From: a virus
Taxonomy: Duplodnaviria > Heunggongvirae > Uroviricota > Caudoviricetes
IMG/VR virus record: IMGVR_UViG_2687453449_000001
Location: 1 to 8,803 of that record
Reading direction: 5' to 3' (one strand)
DNA: 8,803 nt
The position numbers and the translations under genes are program-made. Shown one piece after another: positions 1,888 to 8,803 of this stretch (position 1 is the stretch's first letter; every line of letters starts with the position of its first letter). Below the pieces are notes generated by a model that saw only the letters and a list, made by a program, of their open reading frames with translations, made no database searches and was not told where the DNA came from.

Positions 1888-2901
1888 TTACTCTACTGTG
1901 GACACTGTGTGGACACTCTCGGCCTCAGTACCACCTCTCAGCGGATTAAGAGAAATGGCGTCCTGAAGGTACTCTGGAGCAAAATGAGCGTAAACCATAG
2001 TTTGCTCAATCCGCGTGTGACCTAGTATCCGTTGTAGCGTGATAATACTTCCTCCATTAATCATGAAATGAGTGGCAAAGCTGTGCCTTAGTGCATGTGT
2101 GGCTTGCCCCATTGGCAAATCCGGTTTTATTGCTTTCATTGTTCGTCTGAAGCGAGGGTAATCAGCATCAGGGAATAAAAAACCTCGTTTGTTATCCGCG
2201 ATCATTTTGGCAACAGCCTCTGAGATCGGGACGGTGCGTGGTTTGTTTGTTTTCGTTTTAACAAACGTGACGCGGTTATGAATGATATTTTCTGCTTTCA
2301 AACGAGCTGCTTCTCCCCAACGTGCTCCAGTACTCAGGCAAAGAATCGCAATCTTTTTGTTGTCGCCGTCAAGAGCTGCGAGCAGTAAGGCAATTTCTTC
2401 CTGCGTGAGATAGCCTGTGTCTGGTTTTTCCTCCTTAAGCCTTTTTGTCCCTCTGATAGGGTGCTCACCAAAGTATAACTCCGCTTCAATCAGGGCTGTA
2501 AACATGCCGCTAATACATGTTAAATCACGATTGATACTCGAAGGTTTAATACCCTGACTTCTTCGGGTGGCGCAGTATTGGCTGATAAGCGATTTCGTAA
2601 TTTGAAATGCGCATGGGTCATTCGTTATTTTTGTGAAGATTTCAATTTTTCCAAGATTAGATTTCCCATGCTCTTCGTGTTTACCCTTTAAATCCCACCA
2701 GATCTGTGTCAGCTCCGACAGACGTCGCTTGTCTGTTGGTTTTGATAGCCATTCTTTATTGTGGTGGTTGTACAACGTGTATTTCTCGAAAGCGACAGCT
2801 TCGCTTTTCTTATCAAACTTCCTACGGATGCGTTTTCCATTACGTCCAGTAGGGCGGATGTCCACTTCATATCGACCATCATCGAGTTTTTTGATTGCCA
2901 T
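1888..2901 (-). CDS. int: P2-type tyrosine integrase
   Basis: 337-codon minus-strand ORF: ATG at 2899-2901, TAA at 1888-1890, GGAGG 8 nt upstream. Tyrosine-recombinase signatures are present: TGARWGE (Arg box), HALRHSFAT (HxxR) and LGHTRIEQTMVYAH (catalytic Tyr). Length equals P2 Int (337 aa, from memory). Confidence 0.93.
   Translation of the reverse strand: MAIKKLDDGRYEVDIRPTGRNGKRIRRKFDKKSEAVAFEKYTLYNHHNKEWLSKPTDKRRLSELTQIWWDLKGKHEEHGKSNLGKIEIFTKITNDPCAFQITKSLISQYCATRRSQGIKPSSINRDLTCISGMFTALIEAELYFGEHPIRGTKRLKEEKPDTGYLTQEEIALLLAALDGDNKKIAILCLSTGARWGEAARLKAENIIHNRVTFVKTKTNKPRTVPISEAVAKMIADNKRGFLFPDADYPRFRRTMKAIKPDLPMGQATHALRHSFATHFMINGGSIITLQRILGHTRIEQTMVYAHFAPEYLQDAISLNPLRGGTEAESVHTVSTVE
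1897..1916. repeat. Tandem direct repeats TGTGGACAC x2 (candidate integrase arm-type binding sites)
   Basis: TGTGGACAC at 1897-1905 and 1908-1916, 11-bp period, overlapping the last codons of int. From memory, P2 Int arm sites have the consensus TGTGGACA. Not verified by search. Confidence 0.5.
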
Positions 2902-2954
2902 CAGAAAACCCTCCGAGTGGTGTGTTTTTTTGCGACTACTAATCGTTTTTTTCG

Positions 2955-2977
2955 TGGTGGCTGAAATTTAGCCACCA
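2955..2977. other. Hairpin (8-bp stem TGGTGGCT/AGCCACCA, 7-nt loop) in the C-int intergenic region
   Basis: Perfect inverted repeat seen in sequence, preceded on the plus strand by two T7 runs (2924-2930, 2946-2952). It is not followed by a U-tract on either strand, so it is not a canonical intrinsic terminator. Confidence 0.3.
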
Positions 2978-3016
2978 ATAGTAGGCACTTGTGATGAATA
3001 TATTCACGATGAATTG

Positions 3017-3316
3017 TTAACCAGTCTTTTGACCGGAGTGGGGCGACGTTGTTTCGTTTTGCCCAAAGTGTGCGAGAGCGGGCGCAATTTGCCCGGACTC
3101 AGGAGCGATCTGATTTGTCATGAACCATAAAGTGTATTTGGTGAATTGTGGGGTCTGCAGGATGTTCATCATGACATCTGTTGGAGGTGTTGAACGACCA
3201 CTTTCATAGTAACTCAGCGTGCCATACGGAACCCCTGTTAAATCAGCAAGTTGTTGTCTGCTCAAATACTCTGATTTTCGCATTAAGACTATCTTCTCGC
3301 TTATCGTGTTTGACAT
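3017..3316 (-). CDS. C: Immunity repressor C (helix-turn-helix)
   Basis: 99-codon minus-strand ORF: ATG at 3314-3316, TAA at 3017-3019. Helix-turn-helix-like segment LSRQQLADLTGVPYGTLSYYESG. Same length and position as P2 C (99 aa), upstream of and co-oriented with int. Confidence 0.9.
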   Translation of the reverse strand: MSNTISEKIVLMRKSEYLSRQQLADLTGVPYGTLSYYESGRSTPPTDVMMNILQTPQFTKYTLWFMTNQIAPESGQIAPALAHFGQNETTSPHSGQKTG

Positions 3317-3407
3317 GGTGTTTAGATCTCAATAGTATTTAGTTTAGATGTAGATTGTTTAGTGCTTGGATGTGGGCACTAAAAGGCATTATAAGGCATT
3401 AAACGCA
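3310..3407. promoter_or_regulatory. Lysis-lysogeny switch: face-to-face Pe (rightward) and Pc (leftward) promoters with C operators and cox boxes
   Basis: Seen: TTGACA at 3310-3315, a 17-bp spacer, then TAGTAT at 3333-3338 on the plus strand (candidate Pe). The 8-bp direct repeat GTTTAGAT at 3320-3327 and 3342-3349 (22 bp centre to centre) flanks that -10, as described for P2 operators O1/O2. TATAAT on the minus strand (plus coordinates 3388-3393) is the candidate Pc -10, embedded in three tandem 9-bp repeats TAAAAGGCA, TATAAGGCA, TTAAACGCA (3380-3407) that fit the P2 cox-box consensus TTAAA(G/C)NCA. Promoter and operator identities are by analogy with P2. Confidence 0.6.
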
Positions 3408-3430
3408 ATTCATGAGGGCTGGAGGACGAC

Positions 3431-3706
3431 ATGAGCAAGCAAGTAACACTCATGACTGATGCGATTCCTTATCAGGAGTTCGCAAAACTAATAGGAAAAT
3501 CGACAGGAGCGGTTCGTCGGATGATCGATAAAGGAAAGCTGCCTGTAATTGATATGACCGATCCACAATCAGCTTCAGGTCGTGCAGGTGAATATTGGGT
3601 ATATCTTCCGGCATGGAATAACGGACTAAAACTGGCTTATGAAAGCCGCCCTAAAGAGATTCGTGACGGCTGGTTGATGTGGTTAGGTCTTGGTGAACCA
3701 CGTTAA
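3431..3706 (+). CDS. cox: Cox (excision directionality factor and Pc repressor)
   Basis: 91-codon ORF: ATG at 3431, GGAGG 5 nt upstream, TAA at 3704-3706. Same length and position as P2 Cox. Small basic protein with a helix-turn-helix-like segment. Confidence 0.9.
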   Translation: MSKQVTLMTDAIPYQEFAKLIGKSTGAVRRMIDKGKLPVIDMTDPQSASGRAGEYWVYLPAWNNGLKLAYESRPKEIRDGWLMWLGLGEPR

Positions 3707-3716
3707 GGAGAACCGT

Positions 3717-3887
3717 ATGAATGAGCCTCGTTGTATTGCTCAGTTATTGCGTAACGAAAGCCCCAGGGCGATTGACTTCACCATCACCCACGGTAAGGGG
3801 CGTAAGGGAATCATTATCCGCACCAAAAAACAGAGTCCGTTAAAAAAGGTTCTGACCTTTCTGAAAAGCCGGAGGGTATGGAAATGA
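3717..3887 (+). CDS. Small early protein of unknown function (P2 orf78 position)
   Basis: ATG at 3717 with AAGGAG 7 nt upstream; 56 codons; its TGA (3885-3887) overlaps the B start as ATGA. The ORF-track start at 3690 is a TTG with no ribosome-binding site. Confidence 0.6.
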   Translation: MNEPRCIAQLLRNESPRAIDFTITHGKGRKGIIIRTKKQSPLKKVLTFLKSRRVWK

Positions 3888-4384
3888 CAGTGATGACGCT
3901 CAATCTCGTTGAAAAACAGCCAACAACTATGCGCCGGATAATTGGTAAGCATCTGGCCGTCCCTCGCTGGCAGGAGACATGCGATTATTATAATCAGATG
4001 ATGGAACGCGAACGGTTAACGGTTTGCTTCCATGCGCAGTTAAAACAACGTCACGCAACGATGCGTTTTGAAGAAATGAACGACGTCGAACGTGAACGGC
4101 TGGTTTGTGCAATTGATGAATTGCGTGGGGCATTCTCAAAACGCCGTCAGGTTGGCGCAAGTGAGTATGCATATATTAGTTTTTTAACAGTCAGTCAGCG
4201 TCGCACTTTATTTATGCATGCCGGATTGACTGAAAAAGAATTTAACCAGCCATACTGGCGAATTAATGAGGAATCATGTTACTGGCGTGATGCTTTATTC
4301 CGTGCATTACGTGAATTATTCAGTCTGTTTGAGTATGCGCCGACAATTCTGACGTCGGTAAAACCAGAGCAATATCTGCATTAA
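3884..4384 (+). CDS. B: Replication protein B (DnaB-helicase-associated early protein)
   Basis: ATG at 3884 lies 8 nt after GGAGG (3871-3875) and gives 166 codons, the length I recall for P2 B. The ATG at 3878 is only 2 nt from the Shine-Dalgarno sequence, so it is disfavoured. TAA at 4382-4384. Confidence 0.8.
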   Translation: MTVMTLNLVEKQPTTMRRIIGKHLAVPRWQETCDYYNQMMERERLTVCFHAQLKQRHATMRFEEMNDVERERLVCAIDELRGAFSKRRQVGASEYAYISFLTVSQRRTLFMHAGLTEKEFNQPYWRINEESCYWRDALFRALRELFSLFEYAPTILTSVKPEQYLH

Positions 4385-4447
4385 GTAATTAACCAGAGTT
4401 TTTAACGCACTTAATCGTGCGGGGCTTCTTTTTGCCTGGAGAAAGTC

Positions 4448-4672
4448 ATGCATACAGTTTCTGAAAATCAGTTCGGTAAATACGCATTACTACTGCAACA
4501 GGCCAGAACCGAAGCACAGGCCGACGCTGCGACGCGCTTTTCTTCTCATCTTGACGCCATGATTCGCCACATCACAAAGGCGGAGTTATCCCGCGTGGAG
4601 ATAGTCGAGCTGCTCAGTCAGGAGTCGGAAAAATTTCACAACATCGGATTGTCTCGCGGGGAGGTGCTTTGA
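4448..4672 (+). CDS. Hypothetical early protein (P2 orf80 position)
   Basis: 74 codons; ATG at 4448 with GGAGA 5 nt upstream; its TGA overlaps the next start (TGATG). No recognisable motif. Confidence 0.65.
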
Positions 4673-4974
4673 TGTCCTGTTCTCGTTCAGTTGTTTTACT
4701 GAACAATGCCTTAAAAATCGTCGTTATGAAAAATGGCGATTTGTCTCTTATTCAACTTGGTCTTGATAAAGAAAAACGCGAAATAACTGAATCTGTTATC
4801 GCGATTTATCAGAGTGAATTAAACCTCCTGTCTGATGTGGTCAATTTACTTGTTAAACGCGCTGTATTTCACAAGCAAATTTCCTCCGTGGATGAACTGA
4901 CAAAATTAACGACAGAAATCGCCAGCTATTGCGCTGATGAATTTAAGAAACTGAACGACAAAAGGAGCTGGTAA
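4672..4974 (+). CDS. Hypothetical early protein, compositionally foreign (AT-rich)
   Basis: ATG at 4672 with GGAGG 8 nt upstream; 100 codons; TAA at 4972-4974 overlaps the next start (TAATG). GC is ~35-38% by hand count, against ~48-60% in the flanking phage genes. No recognisable motif. Confidence 0.65.
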   Translation: MSCSRSVVLLNNALKIVVMKNGDLSLIQLGLDKEKREITESVIAIYQSELNLLSDVVNLLVKRAVFHKQISSVDELTKLTTEIASYCADEFKKLNDKRSW

Positions 4975-5198
4975 TGCCGGACAACGTGGATTTTATTCAG
5001 GAACAACAGGCTGAATTACTGGAGCGCCAGATTAACGCGGCAAGGGTAAAACATTGCGGTGCTTCTGCGCTGGTTTGCGAAGAGTGTGACGCGCCAATAC
5101 CTGCTGCCCGTCGTGCGGCTTATCCGTCAGCCACGCGTTGTGTTTCCTGTCAGTCAGTCTTTGAAGCAAAAAACAAACATTACCGGAGAATGGCATGA
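4974..5198 (+). CDS. TraR/DksA-family C4 zinc-finger protein
   Basis: 74 codons; ATG at 4974 with AAGGAG 6 nt upstream. Two CxxC pairs (VCEEC ... RCVSC) about 17 residues apart, typical of the zf-DksA/TraR family carried by many phages. Confidence 0.75.
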   Translation: MPDNVDFIQEQQAELLERQINAARVKHCGASALVCEECDAPIPAARRAAYPSATRCVSCQSVFEAKNKHYRRMA

Positions 5199-5470
5199 GC
5201 ATTCGTATTGAAATTGGCGAACGTTATGTCGTTACCAGTGACAGTTTTCAGTTTATTCTCCACGAGAAAAAGAGAGCGGAAAGTGGTAAAAACGCCGGTC
5301 AGGAGTGGCTGGCGGTGGTTGGTTATTACCCGAAATTAAGCCAGCTCGTTTCCGGCCTGATGCATCACGATATTCTGACCGGAAGCGCAAAGTCTTTTGC
5401 TGATTTAAACGCGCAGGTTGAGCAACTCAGCAGGCGTTGTTCAGAGGCTTTTGGCTCACATGGCCGTTAA
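5195..5470 (+). CDS. Hypothetical early protein (P2 orf83 position)
   Basis: 91 codons; ATG at 5195 overlaps the previous stop (ATGA), GGAG 6 nt upstream; TAA at 5468-5470 lies 11 nt inside the A coding sequence. Confidence 0.65.
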   Translation: MSIRIEIGERYVVTSDSFQFILHEKKRAESGKNAGQEWLAVVGYYPKLSQLVSGLMHHDILTGSAKSFADLNAQVEQLSRRCSEAFGSHGR

Positions 5471-7694
5471 AGCCTCCGGGCGTTTTGTCCCTCCGTCAGC
5501 ATTTGCCGCAGGCACCGGTAAGACGTTTACCGGTGCTTATGCATGGAACGCGCCACGCGAGGCTGTCGGGCGCGAAAGACCCCTTACACGTGACGAGATG
5601 CGTCAGGTGCAAGGTGTTTTATCCACGATTAACCGCCTGCCTTACTTTTTGCGCTCGCTGTTTACTTCACGCTATGACTACATCCGGCGCAATAAAAGCC
5701 CGGTGCACGGGTTTTATTTCCTCACATCCACTTTTCAGCGCCGTTTATGGCCGCGTATTGAGCGCGTGAATCAGCGCCATGAAATGAACACCGACGCGTC
5801 GTTGCTGTTTCTGGCAGAGCGTGACCATTATGCGCGTCTGCCGGGGATGAATGACAAGGAGCTGAAAAAGTTTGCTGCCCGTATCTCATCGCAGCTTTTC
5901 ATGATGTATGAGGAACTCTGCGATGCCTGGGTTGATGCACATGGCGAAAAAGAATTGCTGTTTACGGATGAGGCGCAGGCGCATCTGTATGGTCATGTTG
6001 CTGGCGCTGCACGTGCTTTCAATATTTCCCCGCTCTACTGGAAAAAATACCGTAAAGGACAGATGACCACGAGGCAGGCATATTCTGCCATTGCCCGCCT
6101 GTTTAACGATGAGTGGTGGACTCATCAGCTTAAAGGCCAGCGTATGCGCTGGCATGAGGCGTTACTGATTGCTGTCGGGGAGGTCAATAAAGACCGTTCT
6201 CCTTATGCCAGTAAACATGCCATTCGTGATGTGCGTGCACGCCGCCAGGCAAATCTGGAATTTCTTAAATCGTGTGACCTTGAAAACAGGGAAACCGGCG
6301 AGCGCATCGACCTTATCAGTAAGGTGATGGGCAGTATTTCTAATCCTGAAATTCGCCGGATGGAGCTGATGAACACCATTGCCGGTATTGAGCGTTACGC
6401 CGCCGCAGAGGGTGATGTGGGGATGTTTATCACGCTGACCGCGCCGTCAAAGTATCACCCGACACGTCAGGTCGGAAAAGGCGAAAGTAAAACCGTTCAG
6501 CTTAATCACGGCTGGAACGATGAGGCATTTAATCCAAAGGATGCGCAGCGTTATCTCTGCCGTATCTGGAGCCTGATGCGCACGGCATTCAAGGATAATG
6601 ATTTACAGGTCTACGGTTTGCGAGTCGTCGAGCCACACCACGACGGAACGCCGCACTGGCATATGATGCTTTTTTGTAATCCACGCCAGCGTAACCAGAT
6701 TATCGAAATCATACGTCGCTATGCGCTCAAAGAGGATGGCGACGAAAGAGGAGCCGCGCGAAACCGTTTTCAGGCAAAACATCTTAACCGGGGCGGTGCT
6801 GCGGGGTATATCGCGAAATACATCTCAAAAAACATCGATGGCTATGCACTGGATGGTCAGCTCGATAACGATACCGGCAGGCCGCTGAAAGATACTGCTG
6901 CGGCTGTTACCGCATGGGCGTCAACGTGGCGCATTCCGCAATTTAAAACGGTTGGTCTGCCGACAATGGGGGCTTACCGTGAACTACGCAAATTGCCTCG
7001 CGGCGTCAGCATTGCTGATGAGTTTGACGAGCGCGTCGAGGCTGCACGCGCCGCTGCAGACAGTGGTGATTTTGCGTTGTATATCAGCGCGCAGGGCGGG
7101 GCAAATGTCCCGCGCGATTGTCAGACTGTCAGGGTCGCCCGTAGCCCGTCGGATGACGTTAACGAGTACGAGGAAGAAGTCGAGAGAGTGGTCGGCATTT
7201 ACGCGCCGCATCTCGGCGCGCGTCATATTCATATCACCAGAACGACGGACTGGCGTATTGTGCCGAAAGTTCCGGTCGTTGAGCCTTTGACTTTAAAAAG
7301 CGGCATCGCCGCGCCTCGGAGTCCTGTCAATAACTGTGGAAAGCTCACCGGTGGTGATACTTCGTCACCGGCTCCCACGCCTTCTGAACACGCCGCAGCA
7401 GTGCTTAATCTGGTAGATGACGGTGTTATCGAATGGAATGACCAGGAGGTCGTGAGGGCGCTCAGAGGTGCATTAAAACACGGTCTGAGAAGACCAAACC
7501 GTCAGCAAAGAAACGGAAGCCCGTTAAAACCGCATGAAATAGCGCCATCGGCCAGACTGACTCGGTCGGAACGAATGCAAATTACCCGTATCCGCGTTGA
7601 CCTTGCTCAGAACGGTATCAGGCCACAGCGATGGGAGCTTGAGGCGCTGGCGCGTGGCGCGACCGTAAATTATGACGGGAAAAAATTCGCTTAA
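5460..7694 (+). CDS. A: Rolling-circle replication initiator A (HUH endonuclease)
   Basis: 744 codons from ATG 5460 to TAA 7692-7694. HUH motif PHWHMML at codons 398-404. Paired tyrosines in GYIAKYISK fall at codons 450 and 454 counting from this ATG, the same positions I recall for the P2 A catalytic tyrosines, which supports this start over the TTG at 5418 used by the ORF track. Confidence 0.9.
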   Translation: MAVKASGRFVPPSAFAAGTGKTFTGAYAWNAPREAVGRERPLTRDEMRQVQGVLSTINRLPYFLRSLFTSRYDYIRRNKSPVHGFYFLTSTFQRRLWPRIERVNQRHEMNTDASLLFLAERDHYARLPGMNDKELKKFAARISSQLFMMYEELCDAWVDAHGEKELLFTDEAQAHLYGHVAGAARAFNISPLYWKKYRKGQMTTRQAYSAIARLFNDEWWTHQLKGQRMRWHEALLIAVGEVNKDRSPYASKHAIRDVRARRQANLEFLKSCDLENRETGERIDLISKVMGSISNPEIRRMELMNTIAGIERYAAAEGDVGMFITLTAPSKYHPTRQVGKGESKTVQLNHGWNDEAFNPKDAQRYLCRIWSLMRTAFKDNDLQVYGLRVVEPHHDGTPHWHMMLFCNPRQRNQIIEIIRRYALKEDGDERGAARNRFQAKHLNRGGAAGYIAKYISKNIDGYALDGQLDNDTGRPLKDTAAAVTAWASTWRIPQFKTVGLPTMGAYRELRKLPRGVSIADEFDERVEAARAAADSGDFALYISAQGGANVPRDCQTVRVARSPSDDVNEYEEEVERVVGIYAPHLGARHIHITRTTDWRIVPKVPVVEPLTLKSGIAAPRSPVNNCGKLTGGDTSSPAPTPSEHAAAVLNLVDDGVIEWNDQEVVRALRGALKHGLRRPNRQQRNGSPLKPHEIAPSARLTRSERMQITRIRVDLAQNGIRPQRWELEALARGATVNYDGKKFA
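7311..7330 (+). other. Candidate ori / A-protein nick region inside the A coding sequence
   Basis: GCGCCTCGGAGTCCTGTCAA is seen at 7311-7330. From memory this matches the P2 origin nick region, which is known to lie within the 3' part of gene A. Recall-based; needs alignment to confirm. Confidence 0.4.
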
Positions 7695-7794
7695 CAACCG
7701 AATGCGCCCCCGCGCCAGGGCGGCACGCCGGTCAGTGAGGGTGAATCACCTGACACTGCACCGGCGTCCACCGCCCGACTTTTCAGAGGTAGTC

Positions 7795-8235
7795 ATGATG
7801 ACGCTGATTATTCCGCGAAAGGAGGCTCCTGTATCCGGTGAGGGTACGGTGGTCATCCCGCAACCGGCAGGCGACGAGCCGGTGATTAAAAACACGTTCT
7901 TTTTTCCCGATATCGACCCGAAGCGCGTCCGGGAACGTATGCGCCTTGAGCAGACCGTCGCCCCCGCCCGTCTGCGTGAGGCCATCAAGTCAGGCATGGC
8001 GGAGACGAATGCGGAGCTGTACGAGTACCGCGAACAGAAAATTGCCGCCGGTTTTACGCGTCTGGCGGACGTCCCGGCGGACGACATCGACGGTGAAAGC
8101 ATCAGGGTTTTTTACTACGAGCGCGCTGTGTGTGCGATGGCGACCGCGTCGCTTTATGAGCGTTATCGCGGCGTGGATGCCAGTGCGAAAACTGCTGTTT
8201 CTCAAAGCGGGGCAGGGGGTGACGGCCAGCGGTAA
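7795..8235 (+). pseudogene. L: Truncated head completion/stabilisation gene L fragment (L')
   Basis: ATG-ATG at 7795 with GAGG upstream. Translation MMTLIIPRKEAPVSGEGTVVIPQPAGDEPVIKNTFFFPDIDPKRVRERMRLEQTVAPARLREAIKSG... matches my recollection of P2-family gpL up to about ...YRGVDASAK (~8190). The last 14 codons (TAVSQSGAGGDGQR) are an out-of-frame read of D sequence. 146 codons against ~169 for intact L. Confidence 0.6.
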
Positions 8236-8803
8236 AAAAATCCCGCAGATTACCATCACCCGCAGCGACGGTGACCGTCATCATTTTGCGATTGCTGACC
8301 GTGGAGCCTATACCGGCGTAACGGCAAAGTGGTTACACACCAAAGACCCGAAACCACAAAAGCAGAAGGTAAAACTGAAACGCAAAAAGAAAGAAAAACA
8401 CCTGCGCGCACTGGAGCACCCGAAAGCAAAACCGGTCACGCAGAAGAAAGCGCCAAAAGTACCGGAAGCGCGCGAAGGTGAATACATGGCCGGTGAGGCT
8501 GACAACGTTTTTGCCCTGACTACGGTATATGCCACGAAAGCGCAGGCCATGCGCGCCGCTCAGGCGAAGTGGGATAAACTGCAACGGGGTGTGGCGGAGT
8601 TCTCCATCAGCCTGGCTACCGGTCGTGCAGATATTTACACGGAAACACCGGTTAAAGTGTCAGGCTTTAAGCGCGTCATAGACGAGCAGGACTGGACAAT
8701 CACTAAGGTGACACATTTTCTGAATAATAGCGGCTTCACGACGTCCTTGGAGCTTGAGGTCAGGCTTTCTGATGTGGAGTACGAAACAGAAGATGATGAG
8801 TGA
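8189..8803 (+). pseudogene. yegZ: C-terminal fragment of tail gene D (yegZ-like, D')
   Basis: Frame +2 reads LKAGQGVTASGKKIPQITITRSDGDRHHFAIADRGAYTGVTAKWLHTKDPKPQKQKVKLKRKKKEKHLRALEHPKAKP...RLSDVEYETEDDE with TGA at 8801-8803. This is the C-terminal ~200 residues of P2-family gpD as I recall it, and K-12 yegZ is annotated as such a fragment. There is no plausible start with a ribosome-binding site. The upstream 80 codons of ORF-track entry 7946..8803 are an out-of-frame read of L'. Confidence 0.8.

Follow-up and report, generated by a model that had tools for sequence, protein, structure and literature searches.

Why a P2-type early operon holds a small gene far poorer in GC than those around it is the question that this locus raises. 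The window, the whole stretch of 8,803 nucleotides that was analyzed, carries a P2-type prophage adjoining the host genes yegS and yegR. The prophage genes follow the order int (1888-2901, minus strand), C (3017-3316, minus strand), cox, orf78, B, a terminator-like hairpin, four small ORFs, and A. Gene B (3884-4384, plus strand), encoding P2 replication protein B, and gene A (5460-7694, plus strand), encoding the rolling-circle replication initiator (Phage_GPA; PF05840, E=8e-124), anchor a conserved block on its upstream and downstream sides, respectively. The small ORFs between them, all on the plus strand, are orf80 (4448-4672; DUF2732, PF10809, E=4.7e-10), the GC-poor gene itself (4672-4974), orf82 (4974-5198), which encodes a TraR/DksA-type C4 zinc-finger protein (PF01258, E=2.9e-11; TIGR02419, 78 bits against a cutoff of 59.7), and orf83 (5195-5470; PF17399, E=3.8e-13). 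The segment from the early promoter Pe to the start of A (2.2 kb) is 97.6% identical to P2 at the nucleotide level. A sequence-only reading of this DNA had singled out the GC-poor ORF as a candidate acquired accessory gene and as the best candidate in the window for undescribed biology.

The ORF runs from an ATG at 4672 to a TAA at 4972-4974 and comprises 100 codons plus the stop. A strong Shine-Dalgarno sequence (GGAGGT, 4660-4665) lies within the 3' end of orf80 and is separated from the ATG by six bases. Moreover, one-base overlaps couple the ORF to both neighbors, as the TGA of orf80 (4670-4672) shares a base with its ATG (TGATG) and its own TAA shares a base with the ATG of orf82 (TAATG). 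In each of these features, the sequence-only reading was accurate. The product matches Pfam DUF5405 (PF17399) over model positions 1 to 88 of 88 (120.3 bits against a cutoff of 21.6, E=4.7e-35), matches PHROG 265, and is 96% identical in amino acids to P2 Orf81 (NP_046792; orf81 of AF063097) over all 100 residues. High identity, together with the slot between orf80 and orf82/orf83/A, places it in the P2 orthologue group. The gene shares with P2 orf81 the same flanking genes, the one-base overlaps, and a GC content of 0.373; it differs by four amino acid substitutions and by its residence at the yegR/yegS locus in a prophage that has undergone deletion, whereas P2 is a viable phage. We conclude, with a probability of roughly 80% that covers identity and evolutionary history and leaves function apart, that the AT-rich ORF is P2 orf81, a long-annotated, uncharacterized, conserved backbone gene whose low GC is old and inherited. 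Thus, the candidate for undescribed biology was already known, having been annotated in P2 since that genome was sequenced.

In this reading, orf81 is a vertically inherited part of an early/replication operon with the order cox-orf78-B-terminator-orf80-orf81-orf82-orf83-A, transcribed from Pe, with translation coupled from orf80 and onward into orf82. The terminator-like hairpin, which a motif scan placed with its T-run between B and orf80 (4406-4431, plus strand), occupies the position of an annotated "putative rho-independent terminator" in P2 and of tR1, an anti-terminated site, in phage 186. Because orf80 through A lie downstream of the hairpin, they constitute an early-operon segment whose expression may be attenuated there. 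We note that orthologues of orf81 are labeled variously in RefSeq and GenBank as "replication initiation protein," "DUF5405 family protein," "minor tail protein," and "hypothetical protein," and that the adjoining orf78 is labeled "tail fiber protein" in some records; such labels have been propagated without evidence.

The low GC content of orf81 is real. The sequence-only reading had estimated 35 to 38%, and the computed value is 37.3% (GC1 0.455, GC2 0.287, GC3 0.376). Its figure of 45 to 60% for the neighbors was slightly generous, as the early genes span 44 to 54% (orf80 0.507, orf82 0.511, orf83 0.478, B 0.442, A 0.535). Within the prophage part (1888-8803), only 0.15% of 303-bp windows are as low in GC as orf81 (mean 0.497, standard deviation 0.058). 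To separate protein sequence from codon choice, the codons of each Orf81 protein were redrawn from the codon usage of its own neighbors. For the gene in this window, the simulation gave an expected GC of 0.42 against 0.377 observed and 0.51 for the neighbors, and an expected GC3 of 0.495 against 0.38 observed (P of about 0.01). Thus, about two-thirds of the GC deficit is due to amino acid composition (15 Leu, 11 Ser, 10 Lys, 10 Val, 7 Ile, 7 Glu, and 6 Asn residues), and the other third is due to AT-biased synonymous choice. The deviation that the sequence-only reading proposed to check by sliding-window GC and codon usage was therefore borne out.

How the composition arose is better judged from distant relatives. 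In four distant loci, the gene in the orf81 slot has a GC content of 0.367, 0.382, 0.401, or 0.416, compared with 0.373 in P2, and in all five loci the slot is the lowest in GC of the operon (neighbors, 0.43 to 0.58). Moreover, the synonymous AT bias recurs in three independent distant loci by the same simulation (P=0.0002 to 0.006). Synonymous sites will have turned over many times at 30 to 38% protein identity, so a foreign origin that has yet to ameliorate is not the cause. Instead, low GC is ancestral to this gene, common to its deep homologues and stable since before divergence to 30% protein identity, and something maintains the synonymous AT bias in homologues that are only about 30 to 38% identical. 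Although the deviation is real, its sharing by deep homologues and the large contribution of amino acid content argue against foreign origin as its cause, and low GC within a phage operon is not in itself evidence of recent acquisition.

Conservation of orf81 is high among P2-type replication modules. The gene occurs in 75 phage records, compared with 76 that contain a P2-type B gene, and the single extra B record is a partial match at a record end. Among 5,426 complete E. coli genomes, orf81 has 1,834 occurrences spread over 1,601 genomes (about 30%) and B has 1,958 over 1,705, such that orf81 accompanies about 94% of B loci. The orf81-type family is nonetheless small, as HMMER, run exhaustively against 1.84 billion cluster representatives (50% identity), returned only 20 relatives of the orf81 type. 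A scan of genome contigs with the single Orf81 protein found matches in only three Escherichia species. Four distant homologues with readable contigs (29 to 38% identity) all occupy the same slot, in the order RepB, DUF2732, DUF5405, an optional TraR and second DUF5405, and then GPA, and they do so in both C/Cox-type and CI/CII-type immunity backgrounds. In the loci examined, a DUF2732 gene is always directly upstream of the orf81-type gene. The survey counts and the retention of the slot at 29 to 38% identity indicate that orf81 is an old and positionally fixed part of the replication module. The gene is not universal in the Peduoviridae, however, as phage 186 lacks an orf81-type gene but contains DUF2732, TraR, and Orf83-type genes, all annotated as "not essential," together with a DEDD exonuclease and a PAPS reductase. 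From the absence of orf81 in 186 and the annotation of the related genes, orf81 is probably dispensable.

The gene is mosaic in one respect. Its 5' half (4672-4820, plus strand; GC 0.34, the AT-richest part), encoding a predicted N-terminal four-stranded beta domain (amino acids 1 to 50), exists as two old alleles, and its 3' half (4821-4971, plus strand), encoding two predicted long helices (amino acids 51 to 100), is conserved. The second allele is found in Yersinia phage vB_YpM_115 and in a 96-amino-acid form (P0147) on at least 1,000 contigs. Over the first 50 codons, the P2 form is 53 to 68% identical in nucleotides to the second allele (dS saturated, dN 0.41), whereas from about position 4825 onward the two are at least 95% identical (dS 0.17, dN 0.009). 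The abrupt switch in identity points to a recombination junction inside orf81, at the boundary of the beta domain and the helices. With dS saturated in the N-terminal half, no signal of positive selection can be claimed there. In vB_YpM_115, an extra ORF of 81 amino acids (L006, 1250-1495; GC 0.41) lies exactly between orf80 and orf81 and accompanies the divergent N-terminal allele; its only matches are weak ones to winged-helix proteins (E of about 0.02). The orf80/orf81 junction is thus a minor insertion point in an otherwise fixed block.

A low GC content could also reflect selection on the nucleic acid, and a search for signals in orf81 gave little. A promoter scan found no promoter-like site in or before the gene, Rfam gave no match at E<=1 within it, neither the H-NS high-affinity motif nor A-tracts were above background, and dS was not depressed relative to that of the neighbors. 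No convincing terminator was seen either: a weak hairpin at 4715-4742 (11 pairs, 3 of them G-C), followed by a T-rich stretch, was flagged by the terminator scan, which returned 8 terminator-like matches against 2.5 expected in the whole scanned region. An inverted repeat (4675-4692 and 4949-4966, 16 of 18 positions complementary) links the start of orf81 to the Shine-Dalgarno sequence of orf82. Long-range mRNA pairing between its arms was no better than in shuffled sequences in P2 or any other orthologue, and we attribute the repeat to chance.

Two explanations of the composition must be weighed against descent within the operon. The sequence-only reading took base composition as a mark of foreign origin, which would make orf81 a moron, that is, an accessory gene of foreign composition that entered the early operon of this prophage recently. 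A GC content of 0.373 against about 0.50 for the surroundings, a codon choice more AT biased than that of the neighbors, the exchange junction at and inside the gene, and the extra ORF beside it in some phages are all what a moron might exhibit. Recent acquisition is nevertheless highly improbable, as the slot is occupied in nearly every P2-type phage record and E. coli B locus, a moron being variably present among close relatives, and as slot and low GC are both retained far past the time needed for amelioration. Moreover, orf81 lacks the dedicated promoter or terminator that would let a moron be expressed autonomously, and the recognized cargo hotspot of P2-like phages is elsewhere, between A and Q (PMC9122126). 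Cargo genes for lysogenic conversion in P2 (tin, old, Z/fun, and the A-Q hotspot) resemble orf81 in being AT-rich relative to the phage backbone and nonessential. The A-Q cargo, however, is variably present, confined to a defined hotspot, and often separately transcribed (PMC9122126), whereas orf81 is fixed inside the early operon. Of the two findings that the sequence-only reading had named as contrary to its proposal, universal conservation at this position was obtained, and a known replication role was not. What stands of the proposal is that the gene is uncharacterized and probably dispensable, and the internal allele junction is the sole respect in which the idea of an accessory, exchangeable gene has some substance. 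Alternatively, the AT-rich nucleic acid itself might be selected, as a silencer or site of H-NS nucleation, as a segment that sets the expression of A by tuning mRNA decay or translation, or as an internal promoter, with the protein being secondary. A synonymous AT bias that persists over deep divergence, and that protein sequence does not explain, is in its favor. We regard selection on the nucleic acid as unlikely, however, given the signal searches above, the unconserved pairing, a dS level with that of the neighbors, and the evidence that the protein is selected.

The Orf81 protein is under purifying selection, as pairwise dN/dS among five Peduovirus orthologues is 0.2 to 0.3 (overall omega 0.27). 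The protein is small and near neutral (100 amino acids, pI 7.8). AlphaFold2, given a 12-sequence alignment, returned a confident model (pLDDT 86.6, pTM 0.73) in which four antiparallel strands between residues 6 and 46 (6-10, 14-18, 24-32, and 37-46) precede two long helices (49-66 and 73-98). Sequence, profile, and fold searches of the PDB found no solved structural relative, and the BFVD fold matches were to DUF5405 proteins (TM 0.59 to 0.77). An alignment of 22 sequences of the orf81 and orf83 types is colinear throughout, with only Leu26 (invariant) and Tyr46 (at least 90%) conserved. Orf81 has the DUF5405 architecture, namely an N-terminal beta region, two C-terminal helices, and the Leu and Tyr positions. 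No residue or motif in the 22-sequence alignment looks catalytic, which fits a binding or scaffolding protein and not an enzyme. A similarity to oligoribonuclease and the DEDD family appeared in a single-sequence search of the PDB (E=0.01 over 38 residues) but disappeared with the family profile and was discarded as chance.

What Orf81 does is less clear. Many RefSeq phage records, including that of P2, follow PHROG 265 in calling it a replication initiation protein, and the gene does sit between the replication genes B and A. We consider that role very improbable. Searches of Pfam and NCBIfam and sequence, profile, and fold searches of the PDB found no homology to an initiator family such as Rep/GPA, DnaA, lambda O, or RepA, and the initiator is gpA, with 186 replicating by a homologous A in the absence of orf81. 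The conflicting labels given to the same gene in other records indicate that the name is a propagated annotation, and a comparative study lists the function of Orf81 as unknown (PMC3091744). Thus, the label, however widespread, is unfounded and not to be trusted. Our literature search found no paper that mentions DUF5405, no functional work on P2 orf80 to orf83, and no experiment on orf81.

Orf81 might instead be a partner of the TraR-like Orf82 in modulating host transcription. The two genes are translationally coupled, and there are two independent natural fusions of an intact Orf81 to an intact Orf82, one created by a frameshift with an 8-amino-acid linker (P0091; 74 member sequences on 10 contigs) and the other by an in-frame deletion that leaves both domains intact (P0089). 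With a one-base overlap, however, any frameshift near the stop makes such a fusion. Moreover, an AlphaFold2 model of a natural fusion, built on an alignment that was shallow for the Orf82 half, gave no confident packing (pTM 0.39, linker pLDDT below 50), and each gene occurs apart from the other, as two loci (L005 and L002) carry orf81 in the absence of an intact TraR gene, and 186 carries TraR in the absence of orf81. A partnership with Orf82 therefore seems improbable. Apparent Orf80-Orf81 fusion proteins, considered as Rosetta-stone evidence, were frameshift artifacts in which the C terminus of Orf80 is garbled. We give somewhat more room to a role in host takeover, anti-defense, or superinfection exclusion, with a host target unrelated to DNA-end metabolism, although such a role remains doubtful. 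Orf81 is small, nonenzymatic, early expressed, and probably nonessential, its two old alleles diverge in a beta domain exposed at the surface, a pattern often seen in proteins at the host-phage interface of conflict, and the neighboring Orf82 is TraR/DksA-like, a family that targets host RNA polymerase. Orf81 has no match in PADLOC-DB at E<=0.1, however, and no characterized anti-defense protein in the PDB or BFVD is similar to it. Furthermore, positive selection is not measurable, with dS saturated in the N-terminal half and omega low overall, and the strict position within the replication module is unlike that of typical anti-defense cargo.

A different lead comes from Orf83, encoded two genes downstream, of which Orf81 is, by sequence comparison, an ancient paralogue. 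The relationship is remote: hhalign aligned the two over 80 colinear columns at E=8e-4 with a probability of only 24%, and BLASTP found nothing between them. Like Orf81, proteins of the Orf83 type (P2 Orf83, 186 CP83, Sf6 gp24, and ES18 gp45) are small and expressed early, belong to the same Pfam family, and have the beta-then-helix layout with residues at the positions of Leu26 and Tyr46. They differ in that identity is about 14 to 19%, their genes are not AT-rich, the lysine/glycine-rich loop is longer, and the first helix is shorter. Moreover, the Orf83 type is found in 155 phage records (lambdoid, T4-like, N4-like, and Casjensviridae), whereas the Orf81 type is found only in P2-type replication modules.

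In unrelated phages, orf83-type genes have neighbors that encode DEDD exonucleases or serve in recombination or against RecBCD. In 186, the orf83-type gene is translationally coupled to a DEDD 3'-5' exonuclease gene (RNase_T family, PF00929), and in the Casjensviridae phages UF_RH7 and MA12, a DUF5405 gene is coupled to a gene for an Rv2179c-like DEDD exonuclease (PF16473) in the opposite order. The coupled pairs lie at L009 3391-4247, L015 2501-3648, and L016 2501-3639, and in the Casjensviridae the DUF5405 domain forms the N terminus of a 179-amino-acid protein. Likewise, the orf83-type gene directly follows abc2/erf/ssb in Sf6 and ES18, RecT/Gam-like genes in HK140, and the gp46/47 nuclease genes in a T4-like phage. 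The context in the N4-like phage Pylas shows nothing relevant, and the four distant orf81-type loci contain no exonuclease gene. On the analogy of these neighborhoods, we weakly favor, as a tentative guess still well short of an even chance, a role for Orf81 as a small protein-binding factor for the DNA-end and exonuclease functions of replication and recombination. Such a factor would be a nonenzymatic accessory protein, dispensable for core rolling-circle replication, that modulates enzymes acting at DNA ends or in association with replication, in particular a DEDD-type 3'-5' exonuclease or the recombination or RecBCD-related machinery. The conserved helical half might serve as the scaffold and the variable beta half as the specificity surface. 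The neighborhoods belong to the Orf83-type paralogue and not to Orf81 itself, and adjacency is weak evidence in the early regions of temperate phages, where small genes with no relation to one another abound.

Small partners of exonucleases have precedents. The theta subunit of polymerase III (HolE) and the HOT protein of phage P1 are nonenzymatic, shorter than 110 amino acids, and act on or are encoded beside a DEDD 3'-5' exonuclease. The coupling of DUF5405 to exonuclease genes in 186 and the Casjensviridae suggests a possible analogy in mode of action. Theta and HOT, however, are all helical, and neither sequence nor fold similarity to Orf81 was detected. We speculate that DUF5405 proteins, Orf81 included, could be an unrecognized class of small phage proteins that partner or inhibit nucleases of DNA ends, among them DEDD-type 3'-5' exonucleases. 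In P2 and other phages that encode no exonuclease, a host enzyme would be targeted. The long-diverged, AT-rich N-terminal beta domain of Orf81 would set specificity, and its two alleles would correspond to different host targets. So specific a scheme is unlikely to be right in full, but the link of DUF5405 to exonuclease and recombination genes is a concrete hypothesis and a cheap one. As a discovery, orf81 matters little, being long annotated and so common in E. coli. Its remaining value is as a very common and conserved early protein of a model phage with neither an assigned function nor a solved structure. Modest interest attaches to the deep synonymous AT bias, to the paralogy of orf81 and orf83, to the allele junction inside the gene, and to the association of DUF5405 with exonuclease and recombination genes.

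The prophage that carries orf81 in this window is a defective remnant that lacks cos, most of the late genes, and the A-Q cargo hotspot (where tin and old would lie). Downstream of A, which ends at 7694, a truncated head-completion gene L (7795 to approximately 8183; Phage_GPL profile positions 1 to 103 of 139) is joined to the C-terminal part of the tail gene D (8184-8803; GPD profile positions 152 to 304). In the E. coli genomes that match best, A is followed instead by genes for reverse transcriptase or SIR2/ATPase. On the other side, the host lipoprotein gene yegR (1245-1622) lies between yegS and int and resembles orf81 in AT-richness (GC 0.365, GC3 0.26). It is not phage cargo, however, but a marker of the chromosomal flank of the attachment site.
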